The notes under the pieces are model-generated. The model saw nothing but the letters and a program-made list of their open reading frames with translations. It did not search any database and was not told the DNA's origin. From NCBI GenBank assembly GCA_002699205.1, contig PABT01000040.1:139774-203773 (forward strand): a stretch of 64,000 nucleotides of DNA. Reading direction: 5' to 3'. The position numbers and the translations under genes were made by a program. This document shows, piece after piece, positions 5,455 to 25,011 of this stretch (its first letter is position 1; the number at the start of each line of letters is the position of its first letter). This DNA comes from Allomuricauda sp. GTDB taxonomy: Bacteria > Bacteroidota > Bacteroidia > Flavobacteriales > Flavobacteriaceae.

Positions 5455-5471
5455 AAACTTATAAGCAGATT

Positions 5472-8344: not shown

Positions 8345-8346
8345 TA

Positions 8347-9057: not shown

Positions 9058-9081
9058 TTCCCTCCTTTTTTGCTAATTACC

Positions 9082-11136
9082 TTACTTATTTGTAGAAAAT
9101 AACGGCTGCTTTTTAAGCAACCATTTGATTTGTATCCCCATCTCCGTAAATTGAAATCCAGCTGCCGTAGCAGAGGCAATATTACTGTACTTTCCATATA
9201 AGCCACCCATCAACCGTTTGGAGAACTGATGTTTTATATTCGCTTCTGCCCTAAATATAGAAGTTATGGCATCATCTTCAACTTGTTGTAGTCCTGTTGC
9301 CGCATTGATGCTATAAGTGGATTTGTTACCGAATTTTCCAGCTAGTTCCGCAAAAAACTCACCAACTTGGTACTTTTCTGGGCTAAAATAGATGGTGGGC
9401 ACTTGCTCCGCAAAGGCCAAAAATTGGTAATTAAGCCCAAATTTCAATGTTGGTTTTCTTAAAGCAGTAAAGTACAATGAAGTAAACAACAGTTCACGCT
9501 GATTTTCATCACTCTGTTCCGTATGCATCAATTGTGTGTACCAACCTAATCCAAAGTTGGAGCCTATGTTGTAGTTCAAACCATAATGGTTCATCACGAT
9601 TTCTCGTTCAATCAAATCGGTATTAAAATTTTGCACCTCCCGCTGATAACCCACTTCCAAATTTTGCAAACGGTATGGCTCAGTAACCAATTTGGCATGC
9701 AAAATGGGTTGCGTATAACCATTACCATCAAATTGAGCGTTGTTCAATCCAGCCACTCCAACTACTTTAAGCTTGGGTAACATGGCATAAGTGATTCCTG
9801 CCGTTGCCGTATGTGTATGTGCCTTGGCTGTGGTTTCAGAATTTTCGGTAAGGCGGTACTGATAATTAAAAGTGGACTGTAGTTTGGTTGAAAATGGCAG
9901 GTTTACTGTAGTATTGGAAGCATAGGCCAAATTATTTCCATTATCAAAACTATAAGATACTTGCTCCTGAATCGTTGGACTATAAATGCCATTCATTTTT
10001 TCGAGCAGACCTTTGGCATCTTTTTGATTTTCAAAAATATCCAAGGTTTTATAGGTGGCTACATAAGCCTCATCAATTTTTCCACGGGCAAAAAGAGCGT
10101 TGGCCTTGCCCAAATTCCCATCAAACGAAATACTGTCCGTCTCCAGAATTGTATCATAATGCTTTAAACTGCTTTTAATGTTGCCCGTATACATACCCAG
10201 GGTTGCTTTTAGAGCGGACATCCAGTTACCATCCCCATAGGAGTTGGATAAGCTATCGATATAATTTCTGGCCTGTACAAATTTTCTGTTCCAGATTAAG
10301 GCTTGGGCATAGCGCTCGTAAGTTCTTTCTCTTAGTTTAATATCATCAACAGTATTGACCTTGCTTTTTGCAGTTAATGCAACCTTAAGAGCTTCTTTGT
10401 CATCTTCCCCAATATGTTCGGCAAGGGCTATACCGTTCAATGCCACAATGGAATCCTTTTTGTTTACGGCCAATGTTCTATACGTTGCTTTGGCACTGTC
10501 CACCTCTTTAGTGATCAAATAAATATTGGCAAGATTGAGCAGGGTTTCCTTATCATTTGGGAAATCACTGAAAATAGATGTCAATTTACTTTTGGCGTTA
10601 TCATAATTCTGGTTTTTCATTAAGGTATTGGCCAATCCCAAATTCATATACTTTTTAGAGGTAAGAGCACTTGGGTTTCCGGGTTCAATAGCCAATGCTT
10701 TATCAATCCAAACCAAAGCCGCATCATATTTTTGAAGATTACTGAGTGTGTTCGCATATCCTAGAACTGCGCCAAATTTGTTTGGATAATCTTCTACAAG
10801 TCCTGCGTACATCTTTTCAGCCTCCGTATAGCGTTTTCCCCATAAAAATGATTCATAATAATTGATACGTACCTCATAATCATCGGGGTTCTCTTCCATC
10901 ATACCATTAAATAAGGTATTGGCTTTGTTCGGGTTACCGTTTAGTCCCACAGCACGACCGTAGCATATCTGGGCCGTTTTATTATTGGGGTTGTCTTTAA
11001 GGAAATCACCAAAGAAGTTTTCTGCTTTAGAAAAGTCTCCATTTTCCAAAAGTTGGAAACCAGCATCCATAGAGGACTGTGCAAAAATGCCATAAGAGGC
11101 GAGTATTAAAATGACGGTGTTGACAAAGCGTTTCAT
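9082..11136 (-). CDS. Secreted TPR-repeat protein with C-terminal outer-membrane beta-barrel
   Basis: Signal peptide; about 380 aa of TPR-like helices (e.g. YDAALVWIDKALAIEPGN); about 290 aa of alternating amphipathic strands (FNYQYR, LGWYTQ, FGLNYQF, MGIQIKW). Confidence 0.75.
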   Translation of the reverse strand: MKRFVNTVILILASYGIFAQSSMDAGFQLLENGDFSKAENFFGDFLKDNPNNKTAQICYGRAVGLNGNPNKANTLFNGMMEENPDDYEVRINYYESFLWGKRYTEAEKMYAGLVEDYPNKFGAVLGYANTLSNLQKYDAALVWIDKALAIEPGNPSALTSKKYMNLGLANTLMKNQNYDNAKSKLTSIFSDFPNDKETLLNLANIYLITKEVDSAKATYRTLAVNKKDSIVALNGIALAEHIGEDDKEALKVALTAKSKVNTVDDIKLRERTYERYAQALIWNRKFVQARNYIDSLSNSYGDGNWMSALKATLGMYTGNIKSSLKHYDTILETDSISFDGNLGKANALFARGKIDEAYVATYKTLDIFENQKDAKGLLEKMNGIYSPTIQEQVSYSFDNGNNLAYASNTTVNLPFSTKLQSTFNYQYRLTENSETTAKAHTHTATAGITYAMLPKLKVVGVAGLNNAQFDGNGYTQPILHAKLVTEPYRLQNLEVGYQREVQNFNTDLIEREIVMNHYGLNYNIGSNFGLGWYTQLMHTEQSDENQRELLFTSLYFTALRKPTLKFGLNYQFLAFAEQVPTIYFSPEKYQVGEFFAELAGKFGNKSTYSINAATGLQQVEDDAITSIFRAEANIKHQFSKRLMGGLYGKYSNIASATAAGFQFTEMGIQIKWLLKKQPLFSTNK

Positions 11137-11209: not shown

Positions 11210-11279
11210 CCATTCATCTACAGCAATATGCAATCCATCTACACCGACCATTTTAAGACGTCAAACAAGTGGATATTTG
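11210..11279 (+). promoter_or_regulatory. Putative LytTR direct-repeat site and -7 element (STAS-flippase operon)
   Basis: CCATTCATCTACAG (11210) and CAATCCATCTACAC (11231), period 21; GATATTTG at 11272. Confidence 0.75.
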
Positions 11280-11321
11280 TCCTAACAAGTCGAATAATAT
11301 TAACCTTATAATCTAAAAATC

Positions 11322-11600
11322 ATGGCTTTACAAATCACAGAATCTAGAAGGGTTTTTTCTGTAAATGGTAACTTGAACAGTGCCAATATCAAAATATTTG
11401 AAAGACACATGAGGAATTTTATTAAGCGTGGTGCCATCGTTGTATTGGATTTGCAAAAGGTGACCCAAATAGATGATTTGGCCGGTAAGGCATTGATTCA
11501 AATGTTTGCGAACGCCCTTATTTTGGATTGTCAATTCACTATTAAAGGAGGAGTTCCAAAAAACCTTATGCATGAACTATGCTTGGAAGCTAAGCTTTAA
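11322..11600 (+). CDS. STAS-domain protein (anti-anti-sigma-like)
   Basis: 92 aa; VNGNLNSAN...VVLDLQKVTQIDDLAG STAS pattern. Confidence 0.75.
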   Translation: MALQITESRRVFSVNGNLNSANIKIFERHMRNFIKRGAIVVLDLQKVTQIDDLAGKALIQMFANALILDCQFTIKGGVPKNLMHELCLEAKL

Positions 11601-11611
11601 TCCACTACGTT

Positions 11612-12841
11612 ATGACAGCATTAAACCTTGTAATAAAACGAGTTTCTCCCCAACAACTTTTTATGTTGAGTGCCTTATTGGTAAATGGAGGTAATTATAT
11701 ATATAACTTAATTCTTGGCCGTATTCTTGGCCCAGAAGCTTTTGCAGATGCAGCGCTACTTGTGACCCTATTATTGATTCTTTCCTTTTTGGGGATGACG
11801 TTCCAGTTGGTGACCGCAAAATTTATTGCCGCATTGCCAACACAACAATGGGAGCCATTTAGAAATAAAATTGGTGTTTTTGCGCTTTTAGTAGGATCCT
11901 TGTTGGGAGCTGTGGTGTTTTTTGCCGCACCTTTTCTTCAAAATATGTTGCATACTGAAAATGTTCTCATGTTCCGAATTTTTGGAATTGGGGTGCCATT
12001 TTACTTCGTGATGAGTGTAAATAGGGGGCAGTACCAAGGAGAAGAAGCCTTTGGAAAATTATCCATGTCATACCAATTGGAGATGTGGGGACGATTGGTG
12101 ATTACGTTTTTGGCTTTTGTGTTGATTCGTGACCACTTTGGAGCCTTGGTGTCCCTTGGAATTGTAGCCTCGTTGGCATTGGGATTGTTTCCTTTCAAAA
12201 AGTTGCGTTTTAATGTAGTCAAGACCGAGTCCACAGGTTTGGAATGGAACAAAGTTCGAACTTTTATGTTGATCACTGCCTGTTACGAACTTACCCAAAT
12301 CATTATCAACAATAGTGATATCATATTAGTGAAGCACTTTTTTAATGCTCAGGAAGCTGGTCTTTATGCTTCGTTGGCTTTGATAGGGCGTGTGGTCTAC
12401 TTTGTAGCATGGATGTTTGTGATGTTGCTGTTGCCAACAGTGGTGCGTCTAAAGAGAGAAGGTAAACCAACCAAACATGTACTTTTTAAGTATGTGGGAT
12501 ATATCGGGTTGTTGTCCGCAATTATAGTTGGTGCCTGTGTACTTTTCCCCAAATTGATCATCACCATGCTTTTTGGAGAGGCCTATATTTCCATGTCATC
12601 ATTGTTATGGCAATACGCTTTGGCAACCTCGATGTTTTCCATAGCCAACATTTTTACATATTACTTTTTATCCCTAGATCATTATAGGCCAATATGGTTT
12701 TCGGCCATTGCAGGGATATTACAAATTACTTTAATCGTTTTTCTCCATGGTAGTTTGGCCATTATTGTCCAAACACAGATTTTGGTTATGGCATCATTGC
12801 TCATATTTCAATTTCTTTATTTTTTCTCTAGGGAGAAGTGA
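11612..12841 (+). CDS. Oligosaccharide/polysaccharide flippase (Wzx/MOP superfamily)
   Basis: About 12 TM helices; NYIYNLILGRILGPEAF; NNSDIILVKHFFNAQEAGLYA. Confidence 0.88.
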   Translation: MTALNLVIKRVSPQQLFMLSALLVNGGNYIYNLILGRILGPEAFADAALLVTLLLILSFLGMTFQLVTAKFIAALPTQQWEPFRNKIGVFALLVGSLLGAVVFFAAPFLQNMLHTENVLMFRIFGIGVPFYFVMSVNRGQYQGEEAFGKLSMSYQLEMWGRLVITFLAFVLIRDHFGALVSLGIVASLALGLFPFKKLRFNVVKTESTGLEWNKVRTFMLITACYELTQIIINNSDIILVKHFFNAQEAGLYASLALIGRVVYFVAWMFVMLLLPTVVRLKREGKPTKHVLFKYVGYIGLLSAIIVGACVLFPKLIITMLFGEAYISMSSLLWQYALATSMFSIANIFTYYFLSLDHYRPIWFSAIAGILQITLIVFLHGSLAIIVQTQILVMASLLIFQFLYFFSREK

Positions 12842-12936: not shown

Positions 12937-13006
12937 CCATTCATCTACACTTTAAGTCTGTCCATCCCGTAATGCATTTTTTTGCAAGGGTTTATGTGGA
13001 TATTTG
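12937..13006 (+). promoter_or_regulatory. Putative LytTR direct-repeat site and -7 element (GT4)
   Basis: CCATTCATCTACAC (12937), TCCATC at 12961 (+21), GATATTTG at 12999 (+38). Confidence 0.75.
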
Positions 13007-13034
13007 TATCAACAAAACAAGTAAACTTAACCTT

Positions 13035-14270
13035 ATGAAACTAGCAATTGTCACGGCCTACCCACCAAGTAAAGTTACCCTTACCGAGTATGGATACCAT
13101 CTTGTAAAACATTTTAGGCTTCAAGATAAAGTAAGCGAAATTGTTCTACTTGCCGATAAAACAGAAGCCCCCAAAGATTTGTCTTTTGAGGAAGAAGGTT
13201 GCCCCATCACCGTAAAGGAATGTTGGAACTTCAACGATATTAAAAATCTTTACAAAGTAGCAAAGGCCATTAAGCAAGAAAAACCGGATGCGGTATTGTT
13301 CAACCTTCAATTTTTGAAGTTTGGGGATAAAAAGATACCTGCCGCTCTTGGATTATTGTTGCCCTTTGTTTGTAGAATAATGGGTATCCCAACCATTTCT
13401 TTGTTGCACAATATTTTGGAACAAGTGGATTTGGAAAATGCTGGAATCACTCAAAATGGATTCCTTCAAAAAATATATAATTTTATTGGAACCACTTTGA
13501 CCCGTTTTGTTCTAGCTTCCGATGTGTTAGCGGTCACCATCAGCAAGTATAAAACCATTTTGGAGAAAAAATACAAGGTAAAGAATGTAGCATTGGTACC
13601 CCACGGGGCTTTTGAAACTCCACCAGCACCAAACTATGCTTTACCAGAAGGTCCAATGCAGATTATGGCATTTGGTAAGTTCGGAACCTACAAAAAAGTG
13701 GAGCCTTTAATAGAGGCAGTGGAACTGTTGCGTAAAAAGACCGACCTGGATTTAGAAATTGTTATTGCCGGGACCGATAGCCCTAACACTCCAGGGTACT
13801 TGGAAAACGTAAAAAACACCTACAGCCAAGTTAAAAACATGAGATTTACTGGATATGTGGCCGAGGAAGATGTACCAAAAATATTTGGTGACAGTGCAGT
13901 AGTTGTTTTCCCATACACTTCGACAACAGGTAGCTCGGGCGTATTGCACCAAGCTGGAAGTTATGGAAAAGCAGTAGTTCTGCCGGATTTGGGCGATCTT
14001 GGAATCTTGGTTAGGGAAGAAGGTTATAGAGGCGAGTTCTTTGAAACCGAAAATGCTGAATCTTTAGCATCGGCCCTTGAAAATATTTTGACCAATGAGG
14101 CTTACCGTATCCAATTGGGACAACAAAATTATGAAGCAGCTTGTTCATTGCCAATGTCCAAGATTACGGAAATGTACTTGGATCTATTTAAAGCTATTCA
14201 GCTTAAAAAAGGATTGTTGCCATTTAACGAGCAAGAAGTGAAAAAAATTAAAGAGACTACTAACGTTTAG
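13035..14270 (+). CDS. GT4 (GT-B fold) glycosyltransferase
   Basis: AFGKFGTYKKVE, FTGYVAEEDV, VVVFPY...SSGVLHQAGSYGKAVV. Start at 13035 because the promoter lies inside the longer ORF. Confidence 0.9.
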   Translation: MKLAIVTAYPPSKVTLTEYGYHLVKHFRLQDKVSEIVLLADKTEAPKDLSFEEEGCPITVKECWNFNDIKNLYKVAKAIKQEKPDAVLFNLQFLKFGDKKIPAALGLLLPFVCRIMGIPTISLLHNILEQVDLENAGITQNGFLQKIYNFIGTTLTRFVLASDVLAVTISKYKTILEKKYKVKNVALVPHGAFETPPAPNYALPEGPMQIMAFGKFGTYKKVEPLIEAVELLRKKTDLDLEIVIAGTDSPNTPGYLENVKNTYSQVKNMRFTGYVAEEDVPKIFGDSAVVVFPYTSTTGSSGVLHQAGSYGKAVVLPDLGDLGILVREEGYRGEFFETENAESLASALENILTNEAYRIQLGQQNYEAACSLPMSKITEMYLDLFKAIQLKKGLLPFNEQEVKKIKETTNV

Positions 14271-14288: not shown

Positions 14289-14322
14289 AAAAGGGGGGTG
14301 ACTATTTTAGTTGTCCCCTTTT
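14289..14322. terminator. Bidirectional terminator between convergent GT4 and GH genes
   Basis: AAAAGGGGGGTGACTATTTTAGTTGTCCCCTTTT. Confidence 0.6.
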
Positions 14323-15839
14323 CTTTTTGTAGTAACCTCCCCGTATGCAGGTTTTCGGTTGCCATCGGAATCTATAAGGCCATAATGCTTTTGAGGAGCC
14401 CTTCGCCAAGGTTTTCGACCTACGACTTGCGTTGGTACAGTTCCAAAATCATGCAAGGTCCACATAAAATAAGGGAGCTGCTCTTTGGACAATACTTTCT
14501 GCATTTTATTATAATAGGCCGCTTGAGAATTTTCTGAATTGGTGAACAAATTCCATACACAGCTGTAGCTGGACTTTCCATATTCCCCTAAAACCAAAGG
14601 TTTATGCCCTACAGCATCCTTCAATACCAAAAAACGATCCATTAAATGTTCAGGAGCCTCATAATAGTGGAAAGAAACAAAATCCACGGTTTTTACCAAG
14701 TTAACAGCAGCTTCAGGCGTAGCCCAACCAATGGTTACGGGATGTAAACCATCAATCTTTTTAATCTGTGCTGCCATTTCGGACAACCAGTTCAATACAT
14801 TGTTCTTGCCCCGAGATTCAAAATCCAAATCTGGTTCGTTTTTAATATCCCAACCTAGTAGAGCTTTATGAGTTTTTAAATGGGAAACAATAGTTTCGGC
14901 ATGTCTATGGGTCAGTGTCCAGTCTAAAATGTCATAATTACCATAAAAATCAAAAAGGGTGACCAAAACTTTGAGCTCATGTTCCGCTGCTATATCCAAT
15001 AATTTCGATAATTGTTGGAGGTATTCATCCTTAACGTTAGCTTTCCCAAAAGTTTCGTACGGTACAAAAACACGAACCGTATTTAATCCCATGTTATGTA
15101 TCGTTTCAAAATCATCAGAGATCGGAGAAGCATCAAAATGGTTCCCGAACATATCCCATGGATGGTCTTTTGGGTAATAGTTGATTCCTTTCCAACTTTT
15201 GGCGTTGAATGTAATCTCTTCGGCTTGCTTTTCATGGATAGTGGTGGTGGGCAGTTTTACCATTTGACGGATTCTCCAAAACCCATCTTCCAACAATAGA
15301 ATCACTTTATAGGAACTTATTGTTTTTTGTTGGTGCAACAGTTCTCCGGAAGCATATATTTTTTCAAACTGAGATACATTTTTATCCGTGAGCACGGCAA
15401 GTTTGCCATCCAAACTGTAAAATTCAAGCTTAGGCTCGTGCGATAGGGTAGTGGTCTCTATTGTAATAGCGTTGTCTTGGTTGTTTTTGATCAAGGCATG
15501 TATTTGGGACCGGGCATCCTGGGTGTAATAATCCTCAACGCCCAAATGATTGTAAGAGTTAAGGGCAATGCTCTTAACATACCAAGCGTTCACATAGTCT
15601 TTCTCTAGTTCGCCAAGTGCCTGATCGGAAATTTTTCTACCCCGTTGTTCTTTTAAATCCCAAGTAATCTTGGGTTGGTACGCTTTTTCAATGGCTCCGC
15701 CAATATGAAGAATGGTAGATTTATCGGCACCAGTGTTCAAAAAACTCCAAGCAGCAGCCAATCCATAAATAATCCCGGCATTTATGGCCAAAAAGCTCAA
15801 AAGGAGCAAAGCACGGTATGTGTTTTTCTTTACCATCAT
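14307..15839 (-). CDS. Membrane-anchored clan GH-A (GH5-like) glycoside hydrolase
   Basis: N-terminal TM helix; KGINYYP, GLNTVRVF, WDIKNEP (acid/base), SFHYY, VLGEYG (nucleophile), WTLHD. Confidence 0.85.
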   Translation of the reverse strand: MMVKKNTYRALLLLSFLAINAGIIYGLAAAWSFLNTGADKSTILHIGGAIEKAYQPKITWDLKEQRGRKISDQALGELEKDYVNAWYVKSIALNSYNHLGVEDYYTQDARSQIHALIKNNQDNAITIETTTLSHEPKLEFYSLDGKLAVLTDKNVSQFEKIYASGELLHQQKTISSYKVILLLEDGFWRIRQMVKLPTTTIHEKQAEEITFNAKSWKGINYYPKDHPWDMFGNHFDASPISDDFETIHNMGLNTVRVFVPYETFGKANVKDEYLQQLSKLLDIAAEHELKVLVTLFDFYGNYDILDWTLTHRHAETIVSHLKTHKALLGWDIKNEPDLDFESRGKNNVLNWLSEMAAQIKKIDGLHPVTIGWATPEAAVNLVKTVDFVSFHYYEAPEHLMDRFLVLKDAVGHKPLVLGEYGKSSYSCVWNLFTNSENSQAAYYNKMQKVLSKEQLPYFMWTLHDFGTVPTQVVGRKPWRRAPQKHYGLIDSDGNRKPAYGEVTTKRKGDN

Positions 15840-17056
15840 TTTGGAGTGCCCTGGATTGTTTTAGTGATACCGGCTACCGTTGTTGTTAAGATAATCTCAT
15901 CTACGTTGATGCTGTTGGGTACAATAAAGGTCCCCATACCTTTTCTAGAGCTGGTGTTGAAGGTTCGTATGGTTTGTCCTTCGAATGTTTTGATATCCAA
16001 CCTCATATTCATGCCATCTGGTACCCACTGGTTCATGTAGCTTAGAATGGGGCCAACAGTAATTGTTTTGCCATCCTTGGCCATATGGATAGCGTAATCC
16101 AAGACTGCAGCTTCAAAATCCAGTTCCAAAAGATTGCTTATGGATGTGCCGCTGATGTTCGCATTTACCTTCCAATGGCTCGGTACCTCTGGATGCAACA
16201 TTTTCCCCTCGGCCATACCATTTAGGGTTTGTCCATAGGTTTGATATTGGTTTCCAGAGTTGTCTTTGATTATAAAATTGACCAAAGTGCCGTCCGCAAC
16301 CATATTCCCGTGCACATCGTTTATGGTAGACGTTTTAAAGGAAACAATCTGGTTGCCATCCGCAAAACGGTGCTGTCTGTCCATTTGTATGATAAAATCA
16401 TCCGCTCTTGTGGGTAGCACATTCACGGTAAATTCTTTGGAAACTTGTTTTTCTAAGGTGGTGGTGATAAAAATGTCACCAACTTTTTTTCTAGCTCCAA
16501 CGTAATCGTGGGCAATCAAGTCTAGTAGTTCAATTGGACTGCTTTGTTGTTCTTCCTTGAATTTTTCGGTCAGATTTAGTTTTGTGCCTTCTGGTAATGG
16601 GTTCCCAAATTCATCTTGTGGTAATGTAACCACCATAGATCGGTCCTTGTTGTCCGCAAAAATGCTGGTAGGCCCAATGTACGTTTCCATCTCTTTTGAT
16701 GAATTGTGGCTTGGAAGTATGTTGAGGTCCCCCTCAGACATTATGGAGCTATTAGATATCAATTTCCAATGGGCCTCCCCACTTTTTTGAGCAACGGATG
16801 TGGGCAGAGTAAAAGACAATTGTATTTCGGTAGTATCCGGTTGAAGGCCAAATGTCCCCCACGCATTTTGAATCAAGAGTATTTGATTGCTGGGTTTTCC
16901 ATCAAACCGTAGGTTTATGGCTTCGCCAGCAACAAACTCCTTTTGTTTGGTCAATAGATCAATAGGCTTTGGTACTGAAGCGGTCTCTGTATCCACTGAA
17001 TTGGAACAACCAGCAAGTGCCAAACAAAAAATCCATATGTAATAATATAGTTTCAT
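15836..17056 (-). CDS. Lipoprotein with repeated Ig-like (Big_1/invasin-like) domains
   Basis: Lipobox LAGC; three related motifs DEFGNPLPEGT, DVHGNMVADGT, YMNQWVPDGM; ATGA overlap with the GH gene. Confidence 0.7.
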   Translation of the reverse strand: MKLYYYIWIFCLALAGCSNSVDTETASVPKPIDLLTKQKEFVAGEAINLRFDGKPSNQILLIQNAWGTFGLQPDTTEIQLSFTLPTSVAQKSGEAHWKLISNSSIMSEGDLNILPSHNSSKEMETYIGPTSIFADNKDRSMVVTLPQDEFGNPLPEGTKLNLTEKFKEEQQSSPIELLDLIAHDYVGARKKVGDIFITTTLEKQVSKEFTVNVLPTRADDFIIQMDRQHRFADGNQIVSFKTSTINDVHGNMVADGTLVNFIIKDNSGNQYQTYGQTLNGMAEGKMLHPEVPSHWKVNANISGTSISNLLELDFEAAVLDYAIHMAKDGKTITVGPILSYMNQWVPDGMNMRLDIKTFEGQTIRTFNTSSRKGMGTFIVPNSINVDEIILTTTVAGITKTIQGTPK

Positions 17057-20000
17057 TTATTTGGGGTTGCCTATATAATTGTTCAATTCAATTTGAAAAT
17101 ACGTATAGCCTTTGCCTGTATAAGGTTTCATCATTTCCCATTTTAAATCCTCGTTTCTTTCACCAAAATAGCTGTTTGAAATATCAGAGTTCGGCATGCC
17201 GTTCACATAACAATTGTCCAGTCCATCAGCTATAATCTCCAAGTTGGTCAAATCCCTCATGGTAATTTCGAAAGACTGTTTTCGCTGAATTCGAATACCA
17301 TCCAGCGTAAAATGATGCTCCACCCATAAAAGTTCACCTTCTTCTGTGTAATATGAAGTCAAAACCTGTGGAATGGTTACTTCTTGGGCGCCATAGTTGA
17401 AAAGCGTTCCCTTTAAAAAATCTTGCTCCAGTGTCCATTCTTGCAGGGCGACCGATTTATATAAATCTGTAGTGGCCACATTTCCGGCACATTGTAGATC
17501 AAAGGTAACAGGTTGTTCATCGAGACTGATAGGGGTAAACTGGTCTGGATTAAAAGTTGGCGGCAAAGTATCTTTGGTGGATGACCATGCAATTCCTTCA
17601 AAATCTACTCGAAACGTAGTGGTTTCCTTGGGCATTAATTTATGCTTTGCATGAAATTTAGCATCGTATTGTGCCAATTGTGTATTGTTCTTATTGTACA
17701 GGGTGCCTTTTATGGAGACATCTGCAGGTACATTATCAATATTCTGAAGTTTTCCAATAATACTGTAGCTTCCTTGATACTTTACCAATTTGGCGGATAA
17801 AACCTCTAAAAGTGGTTGCCGCAGAATATCCTCATGATAGGTTTGCTGGGTGGTTATACGCCTACGTCCATGGTTGTAATACTGGGTTTTGTTGGAGGTT
17901 ATCAACTGGTTGGGCGGAATATCGGCATCCACTTTTTTGGGTTTGATATACCATCTGCCTTTCTTTTTGACCAACGTGTGTTGATACGATCTGTCCACTT
18001 TTTCCAGTGGGGTAATCCATTTGGTGTCCACTTGCATCTCCACAGAACTCTCGGATTTTTTTTGGACAGTGATTCCCATGGAATCCAATTTGGCATAAGA
18101 ACTCAATAATCCATCTGTTACCGAAACTTCCAACATATATTGGGAGAGGTCTACGTTTTCATCGGGGTCAAGATAGGAGTGTGCTCTTTCAAATTCTTTA
18201 AAATCCAAGGCGTCATAATAGGCTTTTACCACATTTTCGGCACTTATTTGGCTGGCATTGTCCAGATAGAAATGATAAATTCCGAAAATAAAAATCCCAA
18301 TTACCGCTATGGCCCAAGCTCCATTGATCAAGGAAAGCCCTTTGGAGATTCCGTTAAACTTTGGGGCATGTAAAAAATAGTCATCCGTTTTTTGGGAATG
18401 TCCTTTTAATTTTTTGTACCACGGTACTTGAATATTGATAATGAATGCCAAAATCAAAGTTCCCACGGGAATCAATCCCCACATCAATTTTAAAAAATTA
18501 GGGACATCGTCTTTGGGAATTACTTTGGGCAACGGAGAAATATTGAGCCGCTCCCATACCATAATGCCATTTTCCAGTTGCTGTAGCCGTTGCCATCCGC
18601 AGAAATAGAGGATAGGGTCGTAAAACTTATCGTTGGAAAAAATATATTTTAAATTGTATTTCTCGGGAACGGTTAAAAACTGTTGTAGGGACCCAATTCC
18701 TTCAACCCCTCTAAATTTTGAATTTTCCAATCGTTCAATGGCTCTAGTGGTCAGTTCGGGAAGCCTCCTTGCCGAGTGGTAATTGCCATCAACGGTCATG
18801 GCATTGGTTTGTGCGGAAAGCCATGCCATTTGATCTCCAAAACCAAGCGGTAGATATCGCCATTTATCGTGCTGATCCTGGTTCAAAAAATTAACGATCG
18901 GCAGCATATTGATTTTCTGGGGTTGCGATGGCCTAAAATAATTTAAGCTCATGGTAAATATGGCGACCACAATAAAAGAAATTCCCAGACCACCGGCCAA
19001 TACGTAGTGCAATGGTTTTTTAAAAGCTTTTAGCAATTGTTCACGTATATCGCCCTCTACCAAACGATAAACAAATTCCCCGAAAATGGGTAATGACATT
19101 ATGGTGGCCCAAAGTGTGAACCGGTCCAAAGTGAGGATGTTAAAGGCAGTATCTCCAAGTAACATTTTTGGCAGGGGAGTGGTGCCTCCCGTTCCCAATA
19201 AGGTCAACATGGAAAACGAGAGTCCAAAAAATAATAGCCTTTTACTATAAAAACGATAGAAAAAATATGGTAAAATGAACAACAGTATTCCCCAAGGTAT
19301 CAAGAAAAAGACCAGACCGGAGGAGGTGACTTCCAGAAAATTGTCCCTAGAGCCATGTGGAATAGGAACCTGTGTAATCGGGTTTTTCTTGGAGTTGATC
19401 CAATAGGGCAGAATACAGAACACAATGGCAACCAAAGATCCTCCGCCAAAAATGACAATGCGCCAGAACAATCTTTTGAATTGCTGAAAGAATACTTTAA
19501 AGGTAATCCGGGTGTTTATTTGTACCGCTTCTTTGGCGGCGTCCATGATCACCAGTCCGATAAGTGGAAAGATAAAGAAGATCATCCCAAAAATAGGGGT
19601 AACGTGGTGGGAGGCCACGGTGACCGCAATCATGGAAAGCGAAGAAAGTAATTTAAACTTTCTCCCTGTTTTTATCCAACTGTAAATTTCTGGTAGTGCA
19701 TGCAGAAGAATGGAAATCCCCATTAAACTGGGCAGTTGGCCAAATATGTGCAAAGTCTCCAAGAACATGGATGAAAAAGCAGCGAGTAGCGCTGTATATC
19801 CAGCAATTTTAGTATTTGCCGTAATGACCAACGCAAAACGATATGCCCCGGTTATGAACAATGCTATAATAAGGAGTGCCATGGTGAACATCCCGAACTT
19901 TAATCCACCGATGTACGAAAGCAGGGCAATGCATTGATGCACCAGTGGGGGATAGCCCTGTACCGTAAATCCAGTGTACCAGCGGTAATCCCATGGTTCG

Positions 20001-20152
20001 AACCAACTGTTGGCATAGTGGTCGGCAAAGAAAAGGTGTATGAGCGCATCATAGGTGGATTCCAAAGTAAAAAAGATGGTTGCCCCATGAAAAATAAGCC
20101 CAAAAACCAGCGCAATTGCCAGTGTTATGTTGGTTTGTTTTTGCATTAACAT
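17057..20152 (-). CDS. GT-C-fold membrane glycosyltransferase (YfhO/PTPS-related type) with large periplasmic C-terminus
   Basis: TYDALIHLFFADHY...WDYRWYTG...GYPPL loop after TM1; about 13 TM helices; C-terminal NTF2-like segment (AENVVKAYYDAL) and FxLYD/Ig-like segments (GKLQNIDNVPADVSIKGTLYN). Confidence 0.72.
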   Translation of the reverse strand: MLMQKQTNITLAIALVFGLIFHGATIFFTLESTYDALIHLFFADHYANSWFEPWDYRWYTGFTVQGYPPLVHQCIALLSYIGGLKFGMFTMALLIIALFITGAYRFALVITANTKIAGYTALLAAFSSMFLETLHIFGQLPSLMGISILLHALPEIYSWIKTGRKFKLLSSLSMIAVTVASHHVTPIFGMIFFIFPLIGLVIMDAAKEAVQINTRITFKVFFQQFKRLFWRIVIFGGGSLVAIVFCILPYWINSKKNPITQVPIPHGSRDNFLEVTSSGLVFFLIPWGILLFILPYFFYRFYSKRLLFFGLSFSMLTLLGTGGTTPLPKMLLGDTAFNILTLDRFTLWATIMSLPIFGEFVYRLVEGDIREQLLKAFKKPLHYVLAGGLGISFIVVAIFTMSLNYFRPSQPQKINMLPIVNFLNQDQHDKWRYLPLGFGDQMAWLSAQTNAMTVDGNYHSARRLPELTTRAIERLENSKFRGVEGIGSLQQFLTVPEKYNLKYIFSNDKFYDPILYFCGWQRLQQLENGIMVWERLNISPLPKVIPKDDVPNFLKLMWGLIPVGTLILAFIINIQVPWYKKLKGHSQKTDDYFLHAPKFNGISKGLSLINGAWAIAVIGIFIFGIYHFYLDNASQISAENVVKAYYDALDFKEFERAHSYLDPDENVDLSQYMLEVSVTDGLLSSYAKLDSMGITVQKKSESSVEMQVDTKWITPLEKVDRSYQHTLVKKKGRWYIKPKKVDADIPPNQLITSNKTQYYNHGRRRITTQQTYHEDILRQPLLEVLSAKLVKYQGSYSIIGKLQNIDNVPADVSIKGTLYNKNNTQLAQYDAKFHAKHKLMPKETTTFRVDFEGIAWSSTKDTLPPTFNPDQFTPISLDEQPVTFDLQCAGNVATTDLYKSVALQEWTLEQDFLKGTLFNYGAQEVTIPQVLTSYYTEEGELLWVEHHFTLDGIRIQRKQSFEITMRDLTNLEIIADGLDNCYVNGMPNSDISNSYFGERNEDLKWEMMKPYTGKGYTYFQIELNNYIGNPK

Positions 20153-20206: not shown

Positions 20207-20273
20207 CTATTCATCGCTTCGGTTTAACCATTCGTCTACACTTAATTGATTTCCAACTTTTTTGAGCTATTTG
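20207..20273 (+). promoter_or_regulatory. Putative LytTR direct-repeat site (receiver-GT2 gene)
   Basis: TTCATC at 20210 and CCATTCGTCTACAC at 20228 (core 20231, +21); GCTATTTG at 20266 (+35); an exact TAGATTTG also at 20290. Confidence 0.68.
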
Positions 20274-20332: not shown

Positions 20333-21466
20333 ATGAAAATTTTAGCAATTGATGATCAGCAGTTGATACTGCTTTCTGTACAAAGAAAACTTAAAGAGAT
20401 TGGCTATTTGGTAAAAACGGCCGCCACAGGACAACAAGGCATCGAGATTTATAAAGAATTTACGCCAGATTTGGTAATCATGGACATGAACATGCCTGAG
20501 ATGAATGGATTGGAGGTGATTAGCCAACTTAGAGATATTGACTTGAACACACCTATTATGGTGATGTCAGGTAACAACGATGAAAATGTGATTCTTAATG
20601 GATTTGAATTGGGCATTGTTGATTATATGAAAAAACCCATTGGCCTAGATGAAATGGTGGCCAGGGTGAAACGAACCATTGGACCTCCAATTTTGGAGAA
20701 ACAATCAGTTAAAAAAGAAACCCAAATCATACAAAAGAACTGCGTTGGCGTTGTAATTCCGTGTTATAATGAAGAAGACCGATTGAGTGGCAAGGAGTTT
20801 CAGGATTTTGCGAGGCGTCATCCAGGGTACCACCTATGTTTTGTAAATGACGGCAGTACGGACAATACATTGCAGGTACTTGAAGAAATCAGAAAAGGAA
20901 ACGAAGATAGCATCAGCGTGTACAATTGTGAGCAAAATGGAGGCAAGGCAGAAGCCGTACGACAAGGAATCCTTCACTTGGCAAAAGATGGACAGTTCGA
21001 TTATATGGGGTATTTGGATGCGGACCTTTCTACCGATTTTACTGATTTTGATGAATTGGTACGAACCATTGAAGGTTCAAAGTTTGATATTGTCAGTGGT
21101 TCAAGAATTAGCAGAATGGGTGCTGATATTACTAAGGAATCAGCAAGAAAAATTATTAGTAAAACCATTAACTGGATCATTCAGAAAATTCTTGGAATGC
21201 CTTTCAAGGACACTCAATGTGGTGCCAAAGTAATGCGACCAAGTACTGTGGCATCCGTTTTCGAAACGCCTTTTAAAACGAGATGGTTGTTTGATGTGGA
21301 AATTTTTATCAGAATGCGAAAGATGTATGGGAAAGAAAAAGCGACCGCTTTAATTTGTGAGCAGCCTCTAAAAAGATGGATTCACGCCGATGGTTCAAAA
21401 TTATCCATGAAAGATTCCATAAAAATTATTTGGCAATTGGGACAGTTGTCGATTATGTATAGGTAG
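20333..21466 (+). CDS. Receiver domain fused to GT2 polyprenyl-phosphate glycosyltransferase (DPG/DPM-synthase-like)
   Basis: REC: IDD, IMDMNMP, VMSG, MKKP. GT2: VVIPCYNEE, VNDGSTD, NGGKAEAVRQG, YLDADLS, DTQCGAK, WLFDVE. Confidence 0.9.
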   Translation: MKILAIDDQQLILLSVQRKLKEIGYLVKTAATGQQGIEIYKEFTPDLVIMDMNMPEMNGLEVISQLRDIDLNTPIMVMSGNNDENVILNGFELGIVDYMKKPIGLDEMVARVKRTIGPPILEKQSVKKETQIIQKNCVGVVIPCYNEEDRLSGKEFQDFARRHPGYHLCFVNDGSTDNTLQVLEEIRKGNEDSISVYNCEQNGGKAEAVRQGILHLAKDGQFDYMGYLDADLSTDFTDFDELVRTIEGSKFDIVSGSRISRMGADITKESARKIISKTINWIIQKILGMPFKDTQCGAKVMRPSTVASVFETPFKTRWLFDVEIFIRMRKMYGKEKATALICEQPLKRWIHADGSKLSMKDSIKIIWQLGQLSIMYR

Positions 21467-21603: not shown

Positions 21604-21897
21604 TCAACGTTGTTCCTTTCTTTTTTTTCCGGTGGCGGATAGGTACCTCTTCAATTCCTCTATATCGATAAATTCGTCCGAATTGGTATCTAGGACATCA
21701 AAATCCTCGGCCAATTTTCCCCTAGGGGCTTTGGAGACCTCCTCCCTGACCAATTTTTTATCCTGATCAACATCCAATCGCTCCATTATTTTATCAGGGA
21801 AGGAAGCCTGTCTTTTGCCTGTTTTTTGAATATGCATACCGATGCCGGTGTACAAGGTTACTAGAAAAATTCCTAAGTATATGGTCTTTGATCTCAT
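21604..21897 (-). CDS. Small exported EF-hand protein
   Basis: Signal/TM segment, then LDVDQDKKLVREE and LDTNSDEFIDIEE loops; start taken at MRSKT. Confidence 0.7.
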   Translation of the reverse strand: MRSKTIYLGIFLVTLYTGIGMHIQKTGKRQASFPDKIMERLDVDQDKKLVREEVSKAPRGKLAEDFDVLDTNSDEFIDIEELKRYLSATGKKRKEQR

Positions 21898-21957
21898 GGG
21901 TCGGTCGTTGATTTGATCGTTTGCTTTTGCCTTTTGGGTCAAAAGAAGGTTTACTTG

Positions 21958-22503
21958 TCAATCTTCTATGATTCCAACAACCTCATATGCCCTTGTACCG
22001 TCCACTTGGATTTTTTCGTAGAGGACATTGTTACTCTCATAGTACGTCAATCCGTCCACTTCGACCTTTTCGTAATCTTCGGGAAGCTCATAGATGATGG
22101 TCCCTAATTCAGGATAGACCACTTCATATTCATCACCGTCCTTTTCATAGTAGACCCCCTGAAACATATAATAATTTCTGTTACCGAAAACTACGTTTAC
22201 ATAACCTTGCGGTAGAAATGACAAACGCACTCCGATTTTTGGTGCAACGACAATATATCTGCCATTGTAGTAACGGTAATATCTGTTGTTGGCAAAATAG
22301 AGCTTGGTTCCTTTGTGCAAAATGACCCTCCTTGTATGGGGCAAGGTCCTTACGGCCACCACTTTGGTCCTGGGCCTTTTATAAACTACCTTTACTCTGG
22401 ACACCCTTGCTGGCTTGACCGGTTTTCGGTGTTGTGCATGCCCTTCGTTGGTAGAAACCAATAACACAATGAGTCCCATTAGTATAATTCCAAGTCTTTT
22501 CAT
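21958..22503 (-). CDS. DUF6515-like exported protein
   Basis: Signal peptide; basic N-terminus; repeated YYxxxGxYY...YxVVxP motifs. Confidence 0.7.
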   Translation of the reverse strand: MKRLGIILMGLIVLLVSTNEGHAQHRKPVKPARVSRVKVVYKRPRTKVVAVRTLPHTRRVILHKGTKLYFANNRYYRYYNGRYIVVAPKIGVRLSFLPQGYVNVVFGNRNYYMFQGVYYEKDGDEYEVVYPELGTIIYELPEDYEKVEVDGLTYYESNNVLYEKIQVDGTRAYEVVGIIED

Positions 22504-22731
22504 AATTGTAATTTTTAATAGGATTATAATTCCTTCCTAGGACTCCAATAAGGGGTTTTGGTTTATTTCATTTCGTTTTTTTAACATATGTGGCACGGAC
22601 GAACACTCGATATAGAGGACATTGGTATACCGGAATTTTCATTTCCCCCACTTTTTTACGGTTCAAGAGGTATGGTATTGCCAATAGTTCAGGAACGATC
22701 TTAAAATTATTGGCCCGGGTGATTTTGAGGA

Positions 22732-24270
22732 CTATACATCGCCCACAATAAGTACCGGAAGGGACAGGACAACTTTGGTCCCCTTGGCCATTCCAGTTGT
22801 TTCGTCCTTAAGGTCGATTATTTTTACATGGAAATCATCCTTGAACTTTTTTGAGAAAAATTCCAATCGATCCTTTATGATGGAAAGTCCCAATGATTTG
22901 CCCTTCAATGGATTTTGAAGGTTTCTTAATTGGGATGCCTCTCGGCCAATGCCATTATCCTCAATGGTAATCCGAAGCCGATTGGTGCTTTTTATGGTTT
23001 TGAACCCGATTTCCAATCTTTTTTCTCCTTCTTTGGTAGTTAGGCCATGCCAAATGGAGTTTTCCACGAAGGGTTGGAGCAGCAAGGAGGGAACCAATAC
23101 CTGATCTGGTTTCAAGTTTTCTTCGATTCGGCATATATAGGTGATGTTGTTTTTGAAGCGATCTCCTTCTATTTCGACATACATGTCAATTGTATTGATT
23201 TCTTCTTCCAATGTAATCAGGTCCTTTCGGGAACTTTCCAATATGGCTCGGATGAGTTTGGAAAACCTGCCCAAATAATAAATGGCCTTTTCCTGGTTGT
23301 TTTCTATCAAGTAGGATTTGATGGAGTTCAGGGCGTTGAATATGAAATGGGGGTTCATTTGGCTCCGGAGGGCATCTAAACGAAGTTGGATAAACCTGTT
23401 CTCCATTTTCATGGTGAGCTTTTCCGTCCGTTCTTTTTGTGCCTCCGTACTCAACCCTTCCACCTCTGTTTTGACCTGTAGTAATTCGTCCGACAATGTA
23501 CGGTTGATACTTTCTTTGATCACTTGGTTCTCCTCCAATTGATCAATGTATTTTTTCTGCACAATGGCCTTCTCCCTATAAGCCATTTTTTGCTCCAGAC
23601 CAATGGCGAGCGCAAACAATAGGTTTTCGATCAAAACCCCTAGATAAAAAATAAAAATAACTTCTTTAATGCTTTTTCTCCCAAATGAAAAATAGGTGAT
23701 GGTCAGATAAGAAACAAAAAGAAAGGACATGCCGCTTAGAATATACCATTTGATCATTCGCTCCTCTTTGCTCACGATATAAAAGACCAATGTGAACATG
23801 GCAAGGTTAAGGGGTAGAAAGATATATACATGGAAGTGATCGATCCAATGTGATTGATGGTTGCCCACTTGCATTGCCCATAGCAAAAGATAAATAGGGG
23901 AAATCCCGGTATAGGTCCAATATATCCATTTGACAACATTTGTGTGTTCTTTTTTTAGATGCATAATGTCCAGGATAAAAAAGCAGAACAACATGGATGC
24001 CAACAATTGTGAGGGGTAATGCGTCCAATACATAAATTCCCACCCTGCAGGCGAATAGAAGAAACTGGAGAAGAAAACCCCGTCGATATACTGGAGCAGA
24101 TTGATTCCGTTGATCAATGCGTATAGGCTGTAGAACAGGTAAAATCTTTTTTTGTGCTGGAAGAACTGGATCAAAAAGAAGACAAAAAGATAGAACAGTA
24201 CGGACACTACGAAAAAGCCAAATCCGTTTTGGTTGCTCTCCTTAAAAAACTCTATAATATCCTTTAACAT
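22732..24270 (-). CDS. 7TM LytS-type sensor histidine kinase
   Basis: 7 TM helices (7TMR-DISM-like); LRSQMNPHFIFNALNSI; LLQPFVENSIWHGL; IEDNGIGR. Confidence 0.9.
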   Translation of the reverse strand: MLKDIIEFFKESNQNGFGFFVVSVLFYLFVFFLIQFFQHKKRFYLFYSLYALINGINLLQYIDGVFFSSFFYSPAGWEFMYWTHYPSQLLASMLFCFFILDIMHLKKEHTNVVKWIYWTYTGISPIYLLLWAMQVGNHQSHWIDHFHVYIFLPLNLAMFTLVFYIVSKEERMIKWYILSGMSFLFVSYLTITYFSFGRKSIKEVIFIFYLGVLIENLLFALAIGLEQKMAYREKAIVQKKYIDQLEENQVIKESINRTLSDELLQVKTEVEGLSTEAQKERTEKLTMKMENRFIQLRLDALRSQMNPHFIFNALNSIKSYLIENNQEKAIYYLGRFSKLIRAILESSRKDLITLEEEINTIDMYVEIEGDRFKNNITYICRIEENLKPDQVLVPSLLLQPFVENSIWHGLTTKEGEKRLEIGFKTIKSTNRLRITIEDNGIGREASQLRNLQNPLKGKSLGLSIIKDRLEFFSKKFKDDFHVKIIDLKDETTGMAKGTKVVLSLPVLIVGDV

Positions 24271-24273
24271 AGC

Positions 24274-25011
24274 CTATTGGCTCATTCTTTCCAAAAACGC
24301 GTCTTTTTTGTTTCTGGAAATAGGTATTTTGATTCGATTGGACAAGACAAGGTATCCCTCAGAGCGCAGATACTCGTTTACCTTCATCAAATGTACAATG
24401 TAGGAATTGTGGACCCTGAAAAAAAGTCCGATGGGCAACAGTTCTTCCAAGTCCTTGAGCTTCTTGGATACCATCAGCTGTTCTCCCGATTCCAAAAACA
24501 CTTTGGAGTAATTGCCGTCGGATTCACAATATACAATTTCTTCCACACGAAGGAACAATATCTTCCCACTTGCAGGAATCTTCACAACCTGAGGGGTGCT
24601 TGCTTTGGACAGTGCCTCAAAAGTCTCTTCAAATTGAAGTCGAAAGTGGTGTGTGCCATCCATTTTTTTCAATTTTTCAATAACGCTGGCTATATCATCC
24701 CCGTCCACAGGTTTCAGTAAATAATCAATGGCACTTTCCTTTATGGCTTTTAAGGCATATTGGTTGTAAGCCGTGGTGATGACAACCGCGAAATCCCGAT
24801 ATTCAAGCCTGTCCAGAAGGGAAAAACCGCTCATTTCCGGCATTTCGATATCCAAAAAAACGCAATCTGGCTTGAGGTAGTTGATTCCAGATATTGCTTC
24901 TTTGGGAGACGTAAAGGTTTCTATGATATCAATCACGTCCGGGTATTTTCGCAGTTCCCATGACAAACTGTTTATGGCGGCAATTTCATCGTCCACAATA
25001 ATCGTTCTCAT
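24274..25011 (-). CDS. LytTR-family response regulator
   Basis: VDDE, FLDIEMP, YLLKP, CESDGNYS, FFRVHNSY. Confidence 0.95.
   Translation of the reverse strand: MRTIIVDDEIAAINSLSWELRKYPDVIDIIETFTSPKEAISGINYLKPDCVFLDIEMPEMSGFSLLDRLEYRDFAVVITTAYNQYALKAIKESAIDYLLKPVDGDDIASVIEKLKKMDGTHHFRLQFEETFEALSKASTPQVVKIPASGKILFLRVEEIVYCESDGNYSKVFLESGEQLMVSKKLKDLEELLPIGLFFRVHNSYIVHLMKVNEYLRSEGYLVLSNRIKIPISRNKKDAFLERMSQ

Follow-up and report, generated by a model that had tools for sequence, protein, structure and literature searches.

The gene at positions 20333–21466 (+ strand) of the analyzed DNA, a 64,000-nucleotide stretch of contig PABT01000040.1 from Allomuricauda sp. (hereafter the window), encodes REC-GT2, a 377-residue protein in which an OmpR/PhoB-like receiver (REC) domain is fused to a catalytic domain of glycosyltransferase family 2 (GT2) that resembles the polyprenyl-phosphate glycosyltransferases. 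The fusion is real and conserved in Flavobacteriaceae, and both of its halves retain hallmark residues of their families. Taken together, the domain content, conservation, and genomic setting are probably best explained by a phospho-regulated lipid-sugar synthase, that is, by REC-GT2 acting as a response regulator with an enzymatic output. The architecture is a worthwhile and readily testable one that is not categorically new, because receiver-glycosyltransferase fusions are listed in censuses and proteins of this design are abundant under generic database names.

Domain architecture and conservation of REC-GT2

REC-GT2 occupies the only long frame at its position, which begins with an ATG that is invariant among orthologues and remains open through 377 codons and a stop. 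Pfam places Response_reg at residues 3–113 (E = 5.4e-28) and Glycos_transf_2 at residues 140–280 (E = 1.5e-21). A single copy is present in the 4.47-Mb genome, and more than 6000 relatives are found in the protein database, the best 120 of which are all 377–386 residues long, carry the same two Pfam domains, and originate from marine Flavobacteriaceae. Identity to REC-GT2 is 81–94% in Allomuricauda/Flagellimonas and ~70% in Zobellia, Cellulophaga, Maribacter, Arenibacter, Muriicola, and Ulvibacterium; over the many genera with orthologues it spans 56–94%. The names under which these relatives are stored are generic: “response regulator”, “glycosyl transferase family 2”, or, automatically assigned, “dolichyl-phosphate beta-glucosyltransferase”. 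A fusion that is single-copy in its genome and retained at this level of identity across many genera is far beyond chance, and the large number of relatives with the same length and domain pair establishes it as real and conserved.

The distribution of the fusion was examined in 151 Flavobacteriaceae genomes, one per genus, of which 27 encode the full REC-GT2 fusion and ~22 more encode only a GT2 of the same type. When one genome per prokaryotic species was scanned, full-length matches came exclusively from Flavobacteriaceae, including Zobellia, Maribacter, Muriicola, Zunongwangia, Christiangramia, Lutibacter, Algibacter, Winogradskyella, Leeuwenhoekiella, Tenacibaculum, Croceitalea, and Flavobacterium; the divergent fused clusters are likewise flavobacterial (Neptunitalea, Pustulibacterium, and Flavobacterium). 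One orthologue, in Flavobacterium covae AL-02-36 (locus L092), matches residues 2–377 and has a long open frame over residues 73–377 only, such that the frame is apparently broken within the receiver domain, as in a pseudogene or through an assembly error.

The receiver domain (positions 20333–20683, residues 1–117) is assigned from Pfam, PDB matches, Foldseek, and conservation. It scores 97.8 bits against the 30.2-bit cut-off of Response_reg (PF00072), and its closest NCBIfam and PDB matches, CtrA, CseB, RpaB, PhoP, PrrA, and VicR, belong to the OmpR/PhoB family. In the AlphaFold2 (AF2) model, this half of the protein folds into five β-α units and overlays with Spo0F, CheY, and YycF with a Foldseek TM-score of ~0.9. 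The acidic pocket is formed by D7 and D8, the phospho-acceptor is D51 in LVIMDMNMP (codon 20483–20485), and the switch residues are S79 and K101, the latter followed by P102, together with Y98. All of these residues (D7, D8, D51, S79, Y98, and K101-P102) are invariant in an alignment of 46 sequences, and D7, D8, D51, S79, and K101 are retained in 171 of 173 fused homologues, divergent ones included; the one unambiguous departure is a divergent cluster representative with D51N and K101R. Also retained, in 167–172 of the 173, are D97, E107, R111, and R114, and A110 is conserved as well; we take this region to be the α4-β5-α5 dimer face of OmpR/PhoB receivers. On the strength of these residues, the receiver is very probably a working phospho-acceptor. 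A divergent fused homologue of metagenomic origin (P0250, 377 residues) has a degenerate receiver with D51N, S79T, and K101R and is possibly a pseudo-receiver protein.

A variable linker of ~20 residues (positions 20684–20740, residues 118–136), in which the alignment has no consensus residues, connects the receiver to the catalytic domain. It is predicted to be disordered: the predicted local distance difference test (pLDDT) score falls below 50 at residues 122–134, in a model with a mean pLDDT of 80.4 and a predicted TM-score (pTM) of 0.59.

The GT2 catalytic domain (positions 20741–21463, residues 137–377) is of the polyprenyl-phosphate glycosyltransferase type and is marked by D229-A-D231 (21017–21025), R258 (21104–21106), R272, S276, D293, and R327. 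The only solved sequence relatives that span most of this half are GtrB (E = 5.3e-9), ArnC (E = 1.6e-8), and PfDPMS, the dolichyl-phosphate mannose (DPM) synthase of Pyrococcus (E = 5.6e-5). The same three enzymes are the top Foldseek neighbors of the AF2 model, with E-values of 4e-11 for ArnC (9asc), 1.3e-10 for GtrB (9nyd), and 8.6e-10 for PfDPMS (5mlz). Each of these structural alignments extends over ~245 columns and therefore covers the entire GT2 half, including two helices that follow the GT-A core. Among NCBIfam models, those for ArnC, PgfS, PpgS, and AglJ match the GT2 half below threshold.

Several hallmark residues of the lipid-phosphate glycosyltransferases have counterparts in REC-GT2. 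D229-A-D231 aligns with the DXD motif (DAD) of GtrB and ArnC. R258, which is retained in 170 of 173 fused homologues, aligns with the arginine of the ArnC TVR motif and with R122 of GtrB (position 145 of the PDB chain). Residue R122 of GtrB represents the universally conserved arginine of the lipid-phosphate glycosyltransferases (PMC4728340) and corresponds to R117 of PfDPMS, a ligand of the dolichyl phosphate (Dol-P) phosphate group, for which R131 and S135 are the other two ligands (PMC5526996). In REC-GT2, R272 and S276 follow R258 at distances of 14 and 18 residues, a spacing equal to that of R131 and S135 in PfDPMS; they are invariant in the 46 sequences, and their equivalence to the PfDPMS pair is one of spacing only. 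The same two residues align with the FRKSASK segment of ArnC, FRKSASKIINLLIQ. D293, retained in 172 of the 173 homologues, aligns with the aspartate of the ArnC GD motif.

R272 and S276 are carried by an amphipathic helix (positions 21143–21190, residues 271–286, SARKIISKTINWIIQK), which is assigned as interface or juxtamembrane helix 1 from the model, its hydrophobic moment, and the alignment with ArnC. A second amphipathic helix at the C terminus (positions 21407–21460, residues 359–376) is equivalent to interface helix 2 on the basis of the model and hydrophobic moment; it is preceded by a disordered loop (residues 350–355) in a stretch with the conserved residues R348, H351, D353, and K356. 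Both helices combine a high hydrophobic moment with a positive mean hydrophobicity and correspond to the isoprenoid-binding interface helices of DPM synthase and GtrB.

No transmembrane helix is present in REC-GT2, for which the highest 19-residue Kyte-Doolittle mean is 0.65, compared with ~1.6 for a transmembrane segment. Some members of the polyprenyl-phosphate glycosyltransferases naturally lack such helices, and since C-terminal transmembrane helices are not universal in the class, REC-GT2 is kept within it, as a variant without transmembrane helices and not as an orthologue of GtrB or ArnC. The family of REC-GT2 is devoid of transmembrane helices as a whole: most of the best 150 cluster representatives that match the GT2 half are only ~236–300 residues long and comprise little beyond the domain itself. 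That a PfDPMS variant devoid of its transmembrane domain is membrane-localized and catalytically active (PMC5526996) makes a monotopic enzyme of this class credible. Judged by fold neighbors and aligned residues, the GT2 domain is likely to make a polyprenyl-phosphate-linked sugar. The preliminary description of the window, which had proposed an intact receiver (acidic pocket, phospho-acceptor Asp in IMDMNMP, and Ser and Lys switch residues) fused to a GT2 similar to the dolichyl-phosphate glucose and DPM synthases and lacking C-terminal transmembrane helices, is borne out in both respects.

The receiver is a single acquisition. Maximum-likelihood analysis of the GT2 domain groups every fused form in one clade (support 99/87), the sister clade of which consists of receiver-less, cluster-linked GT2s from Flavobacteriaceae, Saprospiraceae, Ekhidna, and Algoriphagus. 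The monophyly of the fused forms indicates that the receiver was gained once, inside Flavobacteriaceae. In six genera of that family (G007, G014, G025, G079, G081, and G099), the same gene cluster contains a receiver-less GT2 of ~240 residues that begins at MKTGIIIPCYNEE. Genomes of the Algibacter, Leeuwenhoekiella, and Oceanihabitans type have an extra, stand-alone receiver gene directly upstream of REC-GT2, separated from it by a stop codon and ~50 nucleotides and encoding a receiver 54% identical to the fused one. Loci with this arrangement include L046 (G063:C3; 3623–5150 and 15988–17121), L081, and L084–L087, and the G063 genome has two REC-GT2 copies that flank the cluster. The extra receiver could act as a phosphate sink or competitor.

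Gene cluster, upstream repeat, and H-NOX relay

A single conserved cluster surrounds (REC-)GT2 in the 27 orthologous loci compared, and it is found in ~30 genera of Flavobacteriaceae. In the window, the cluster contains a candidate flippase of the MOP family (Polysacc_synt; 11612–12841, +) and a GT4 glycosyltransferase (12972–14270, +), both assigned from Pfam and synteny. These are followed on the opposite strand by a protein with a glycoside hydrolase (GH)-like TIM barrel (14307–15839, −), an immunoglobulin (Ig)-like lipoprotein (15836–17056, −), and a 1031-residue protein (17057–20152, −), the first two of which, likewise recognized by Pfam and synteny, share an operon with the third. The 1031-residue protein combines a polytopic N-terminal half with NTF2-like and β-rich periplasmic domains, and its gene is usually divergent to (REC-)GT2. 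It is encoded in 32 of the 151 sampled genera, every one of which also has a GT2 of this type, and its gene adjoins (REC-)GT2 in every locus fetched. The protein is presumed to be a GT-C-type user of the lipid-linked sugar donor.

The neighborhoods of GT2 homologues outside this cluster support the role of the domain in lipid-sugar donor synthesis. In 33 of 65 loci, drawn from many phyla, a stand-alone GT2 homologue lies within 450 bp of a large polytopic open reading frame, defined as one of at least 400 residues with at least seven hydrophobic segments. The homologues from other phyla measure 240–270 residues and have no transmembrane helices. The 26 polytopic neighbors that were scanned match PMT_2 (11), PMT (8), DUF6056 (3), GtrII (1), YfhO (1), PTPS_related (1), and DUF6311 (1). 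Proteins of the PMT, GtrII, and YfhO families belong to the GT-C enzymes and draw on polyprenyl-phosphate-linked sugar donors, so the usual adjacency of receiver-less homologues to GT-C family proteins argues for a donor-supplying function. In locus L066 (G116:C1), an open reading frame at 7450–10368 (−) encodes a natural fusion of 973 residues in which a GT2 of the same subtype, also without transmembrane helices, is joined to a DUF6311 polytopic domain; it contains the motifs DTQCGCK and WLFDVEIF and a C-terminal extracytoplasmic region. This fusion is a Rosetta-stone link between this type of GT2 and large membrane partners.

Several loci depart from the common arrangement. In L058 (G100:C1; 8505–11437), a tandem of GT2, REC-GT2, and GT2 paralogues lies beside the H-NOX relay described below, and this genome is the sole one of the 27 with the fusion to lack the 1031-residue protein. 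In L053 (G040:C16; 10781–12086), the gene for the 1031-residue protein is shortened to its first ~157 codons and abuts H-NOX and REC genes, with REC-GT2 intact; this arrangement looks like cluster decay or rearrangement. Within the 1031-residue protein, residues ~397–545 are the most conserved, with an invariant run at ~400–535 that includes GFGDQMAWLS and DGNYHSARRLPELT. This stretch is modeled by AF2 at a pLDDT of only 24–33 and may be a conserved periplasmic domain without a recognizable fold or family.

The cluster is linked to a candidate phosphodonor and regulator, an H-NOX relay located ~15 kb upstream of REC-GT2 (4993–9057, +). By Pfam, the relay comprises a stand-alone REC protein (4993), an H-NOX protein (5427), a receiver-less 3xPAS-HisKA-HATPase kinase (5974), and a REC-LytTR regulator (8341); a histidine phosphotransfer (Hpt)-like protein at 8024 is a weak match with an E-value of 0.002, below threshold. 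H-NOX is encoded in 31 of 33 cluster genomes and in 23 of 118 others (Fisher 2e-15, a value overstated since the genomes are related), and the relay is present in 26 of the 27 genomes with the fusion. Where H-NOX and (REC-)GT2 are on one contig, they lie within 36 kb of each other in 28 of 29 genomes. No study of H-NOX signaling in Flavobacteriaceae was found in the literature.

A LytS-type kinase/LytTR pair at 22732–25011 was considered as the cognate system and rejected, as it is syntenic in none of the 27 orthologous loci; nor do these loci have any other kinase gene in a conserved position beside the cluster. The downstream neighbors of REC-GT2 as a whole (21604–25011, −), an EF-hand protein of 112 residues, a DUF6515 protein, and the 7TMR-DISM/LytS-type kinase with its own REC-LytTR regulator, are not syntenic elsewhere. 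Co-occurrence, close linkage, and the lack of synteny of the adjacent kinase pair thus make the H-NOX relay the best candidate partner of the fused receiver.

A second connection to the relay is suggested by the sequence upstream of REC-GT2. A tandem direct repeat, ATTCATC N14 ATTCGTC, with half-sites 21 bp apart (20209–20236, +), is oriented toward the gene and is a candidate LytTR operator; its proximal half-site extends as CATTCGTCTACA. Downstream of the repeat, TATTTG (20268–20273, +) is a candidate Bacteroidota −7 element by consensus resemblance only. It lies 59 nucleotides from the start of the first repeat copy, compared with 62 nucleotides at the two sister promoters, and sites at 11212 (flippase) and 12939 (GT4) are in the same register as that at 20209. 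A loose two-half-site pattern occurs four times in the window, with 2.3 occurrences expected, a count that is not significant alone, and the case for the site therefore rests on its conservation. When CATTC[AG]TCTACA was searched with up to two mismatches (background, 0.03 per 220 nucleotides), 14 of 22 fused orthologues carried the proximal half-site 93–142 nucleotides ahead of the ATG, most of them at 93–104 nucleotides, as did five of six receiver-less ones. Most orthologues that lack the half-site come directly after a codirectional GT4 gene or extra REC gene.

The presence of the tandem site at receiver-less orthologues indicates that transcriptional control does not depend on the fusion and that the receiver is an added layer. 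From its sequence, the repeat at 20209–20236 may be bound by a LytTR regulator. The preliminary description had pointed out the LytTR-type site, with a feed-forward loop as its possible consequence, and had proposed REC-GT2 as an enzymatic output of a relay with an Hpt; the comparative data agree with it, for the site as a sequence element and for the linkage to the H-NOX/Hpt/LytTR relay as a genomic association.

The sister promoters have peculiarities of their own. At the GT4 gene, the tandem site (12939–12966) stops six nucleotides before the listed ATG at 12972, and the TTAACCTTATG context, which is also seen at REC-GT2, precedes an ATG at 13035. This downstream ATG is probably the true start, as indicated by promoter layout; tblastn alignments of orthologues begin at residues 18–22. 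The flippase promoter (11212–11612) has the same site, the same −7 layout, and a AACCTTAT motif where the other two genes start. There, however, AACCTTAT is not followed by an ATG, and the flippase open reading frame begins ~310 nucleotides further on, leaving room for a long leader or an unannotated small feature.

Proposed mechanism and alternatives

The proposed mechanism starts from an OmpR/PhoB-like receiver, with D51 as phospho-acceptor, joined through a flexible ~20-residue linker to a monotopic GT2, which would use a nucleotide sugar to load a single sugar onto undecaprenyl phosphate (Und-P). The lipid-phosphate-linked sugar would be flipped by the MOP-family flippase of the cluster and used in the periplasm by the polytopic, probably GT-C, protein of 1031 residues to build or decorate a surface polysaccharide or exopolysaccharide. 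Phosphorylation of D51 would set the activity of the enzyme and would most likely switch it on, either through α4-β5-α5 dimerization or through release of an inhibitory or membrane-masking contact. The modes of control to be considered are dimerization, for which PleD or PhoB would be the model, relief of occlusion, with CheB as the model, and regulated docking to the membrane. Given the retained receiver residues, there is good reason to expect that phosphorylation changes the output of the enzyme. The most likely phosphodonor would be the H-NOX-associated PAS kinase/Hpt relay, an assignment to which somewhat less than an even chance is given. The LytTR regulator of the relay would probably also drive transcription of REC-GT2 through the 20209–20236 repeat, resulting in a coherent feed-forward arrangement. 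The most far-reaching version, in which a nitric oxide (NO)-sensing H-NOX phosphorelay directly phosphorylates a lipid-carrier sugar synthase and, at the enzyme and within seconds, gates the supply of donor to GT-C-dependent polysaccharide assembly in the periplasm while LytTR adds a feed-forward AND gate, is a doubtful but attractive extension.

A number of observations count against the proposed mechanism. With respect to catalysis, the HMMER alignment to GtrB places the catalytic D157 opposite G297 and not D293, and the equivalence of D293 to the catalytic aspartate consequently comes from the ArnC alignment alone. With respect to the partner, neither the 1031-residue protein nor three close orthologues have a Pfam match, and a profile search of the PDB returned no relevant sequence match. 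Its AF2 model is poor (pLDDT 63.8), with Foldseek matches limited to weak ones to STT3 (E ~1e-2) and NTF2-like proteins; an orthologue from Algoriphagus, 40% identical, matches PTPS_related below threshold (E = 1.8e-4). The poor model, weak fold matches, and lack of profile matches make the GT-C label tentative. With respect to regulation, the interdomain geometry of the REC-GT2 model is not confident, and no autoinhibitory interface can be read from it; with a disordered linker at residues 122–134 and a pTM of 0.59, the model does not decide the mode of control. The same cluster evidently functions with receiver-less orthologues, and the receiver is therefore an add-on. No characterized lipid-phosphate glycosyltransferase with a fused receiver was found in the literature.

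The identity of the phosphodonor is the part of the mechanism with the strongest competitor. It is possible, although rather unlikely, that the phosphoryl group comes from an orphan or cross-talking kinase elsewhere or from acetyl phosphate, and that the proximity of the relay reflects shared transcriptional control only. In an alignment of the five receivers of the window, the fused, OmpR/PhoB-like receiver is just 24–29% identical to the relay receivers and 32% identical to an unrelated OmpR-type regulator. In addition, all 18 genomes tested encode Hpt, be it alongside the fusion, alongside a receiver-less GT2, or without any cluster, which shows that the relay is older than the fusion and can do without it, and in one genome the relay lies 2.3 Mb from the cluster. 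For these reasons, the phosphodonor is not pinned to the H-NOX relay; the tandem site, moreover, is already found upstream of receiver-less orthologues. An unrelated donor leaves unexplained, however, why the relay accompanies nearly every fusion and almost always lies within 36 kb of it, with the LytS-type pair non-syntenic in other genera and no other cluster-adjacent kinase conserved.

A second alternative concerns the reaction: REC-GT2 could be an ordinary cytoplasmic Leloir GT2, still regulated by its receiver, whose sugar acceptor is a lipid-linked oligosaccharide or some other molecule of the GT4/flippase pathway in place of bare polyprenyl phosphate. Many WcaA-type GT2s also lack transmembrane helices, a GT4 and a Wzx-like flippase are encoded in the same cluster, and the scores of REC-GT2 against all curated families are far under their cut-offs, the top NCBIfam score being that of PgaC/IcaA, which is limited to the N-terminal 110 residues. 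This alternative is nonetheless improbable: the full-domain structural neighbors at the top of the ranking are all lipid-phosphate glycosyltransferases, the R258/R272/S276 ligand set and the ArnC-like interface-helix motif are invariant, and homologues are systematically paired with GT-C proteins that use lipid-phosphate-linked sugar donors.

Finally, a receiver that does not gate catalysis and serves as a phosphate sink or competitor, or as a constitutive dimerization or localization module on a constitutive GT2, would suit the functioning receiver-less orthologues, the stand-alone receiver copies directly upstream in some genera (as seen for phosphate sinks), and the one divergent representative with D51N and K101R, but it is very improbable given the strong conservation of the phospho-acceptor set with S79, Y98, and K101 and the retention of the covalent fusion, after it arose once, in more than 25 genera, as expected for intramolecular control of the kind known from CheB, PleD, and PorX.

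Significance and comparison with known systems

Post-translational control of bacterial exopolysaccharide synthesis is mostly exerted through cyclic di-GMP receptors, such as BcsA, PelD, Alg44, and PgaCD, and through tyrosine kinases, and cyclic di-GMP signaling is largely lacking in Bacteroidota. A receiver on the enzyme that charges the lipid carrier would, if the proposed mechanism is correct, place a committed step of donor supply under direct two-component control. The fusion is carried by many Flavobacteriaceae of ecological importance in marine and fresh waters (Zobellia, Maribacter, Cellulophaga, Tenacibaculum, and Flavobacterium), and the tie to an uncharacterized H-NOX relay offers a handle on the coupling of NO or redox state to surface-glycan or biofilm production. 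Should the relay indeed phosphorylate the synthase, no two-component system would have been shown before to target a polyprenyl-phosphate glycosyltransferase, and H-NOX would gain its first defined output in Bacteroidota. Fused and receiver-less orthologues in the same cluster provide a natural experiment for dissecting the contribution of the receiver, and a soluble REC-GT2 of ~40 kDa should be easy to assay.

Among enzymes with lipid-phosphate acceptors, GtrB (an Und-P-glucose synthase), ArnC (an Und-P-Ara4FN transferase), the archaeal and eukaryotic DPM synthases, and Alg5 share with REC-GT2 the GT-A fold, the DXD motif, and the phosphate-binding arginine (R258, equivalent to GtrB R122 and PfDPMS R117). 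The Arg/Ser pair on interface helix 1, the two amphipathic helices, and a segment resembling the acceptor loop are also common to these enzymes and REC-GT2. The main differences are that REC-GT2 has an additional N-terminal receiver, is just 21–24% identical to these enzymes, and lacks the transmembrane helices and the C-terminal β-hairpin, which are the elements that hold the GtrB tetramer together. In this respect, it is more reminiscent of the mycobacterial polyprenyl-phosphate-GalNAc synthase PpgS and of human DPM1, which are soluble or monotopic and depend on partner membrane proteins. The likeness lies in a catalytic unit of ~240 residues without transmembrane helices and a separately encoded membrane partner or GT-C enzyme, and the NCBIfam model of PpgS matches the GT2 half with an E-value of 1.7e-8 (34 bits against a cut-off of 370 bits). 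We know of no receiver domain in any enzyme of the PpgS/DPM1 type.

The cluster as a whole follows the logic of three-component systems, such as GtrA/GtrB/Gtr*, CsbB/GtcA/YfhO, and the polyprenyl-phosphoribose synthase/MATE flippase/GT136 system, in which a lipid-phosphate-sugar synthase and a flippase are encoded together with a GT-C enzyme that bears a carbohydrate-binding region at its C terminus (PMC11127046). Here, the corresponding components are the synthase, the MOP-type flippase, and the large polytopic protein with C-terminal periplasmic domains. The REC-GT2 cluster differs from the three-component systems in that its GT-C partner is presumed only, its synthase is fused to a signaling domain, and a GT4, a GH-like enzyme, an Ig-like lipoprotein, and a TPR protein are added. 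These additional components suggest that the cluster may build a polymer and not only decorate one.

As a response regulator, REC-GT2 is comparable to CheB (REC-methylesterase), PleD and WspR (REC-GGDEF), RpfG (REC-HD-GYP), and PorX (REC-PglZ), in all of which a receiver is fused through a linker to a catalytic domain. In these proteins, phosphorylation of the receiver aspartate controls activity by relief of inhibition or by dimerization. PorX, which is among the fold matches of REC-GT2, is a regulator from Bacteroidota as well. The output of REC-GT2 differs in being a glycosyltransferase that would act on a membrane lipid, and not a signaling or second-messenger enzyme.

Two further proteins approach REC-GT2 from different directions. 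MTH_548 of Methanobacteriaceae, in which REC is fused to a BcsA-like GT2, is listed as an uncharacterized response regulator with enzymatic output in the Galperin census (PMC5847659). It shares the plan of a receiver joined to a GT2-superfamily domain, but its catalytic domain belongs to the processive, cellulose-synthase-like subfamily PF13641, and it represents an independent fusion in a different domain of life. In functional terms, the closest analogue is All4160 of Anabaena, a STAS-phosphoglycosyl transferase under the control of a partner-switching kinase and phosphatase (PMC13555669), in which the first lipid-linked step toward an envelope polysaccharide is controlled through the phosphorylation of a regulatory domain fused to the enzyme. 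In All4160, the phosphorylated residue is a serine of the STAS domain and the catalytic domain is a phosphoglycosyl transferase that forms an Und-PP-sugar, whereas in REC-GT2 the corresponding elements are a receiver aspartate and a GT2 of the Und-P-sugar type.

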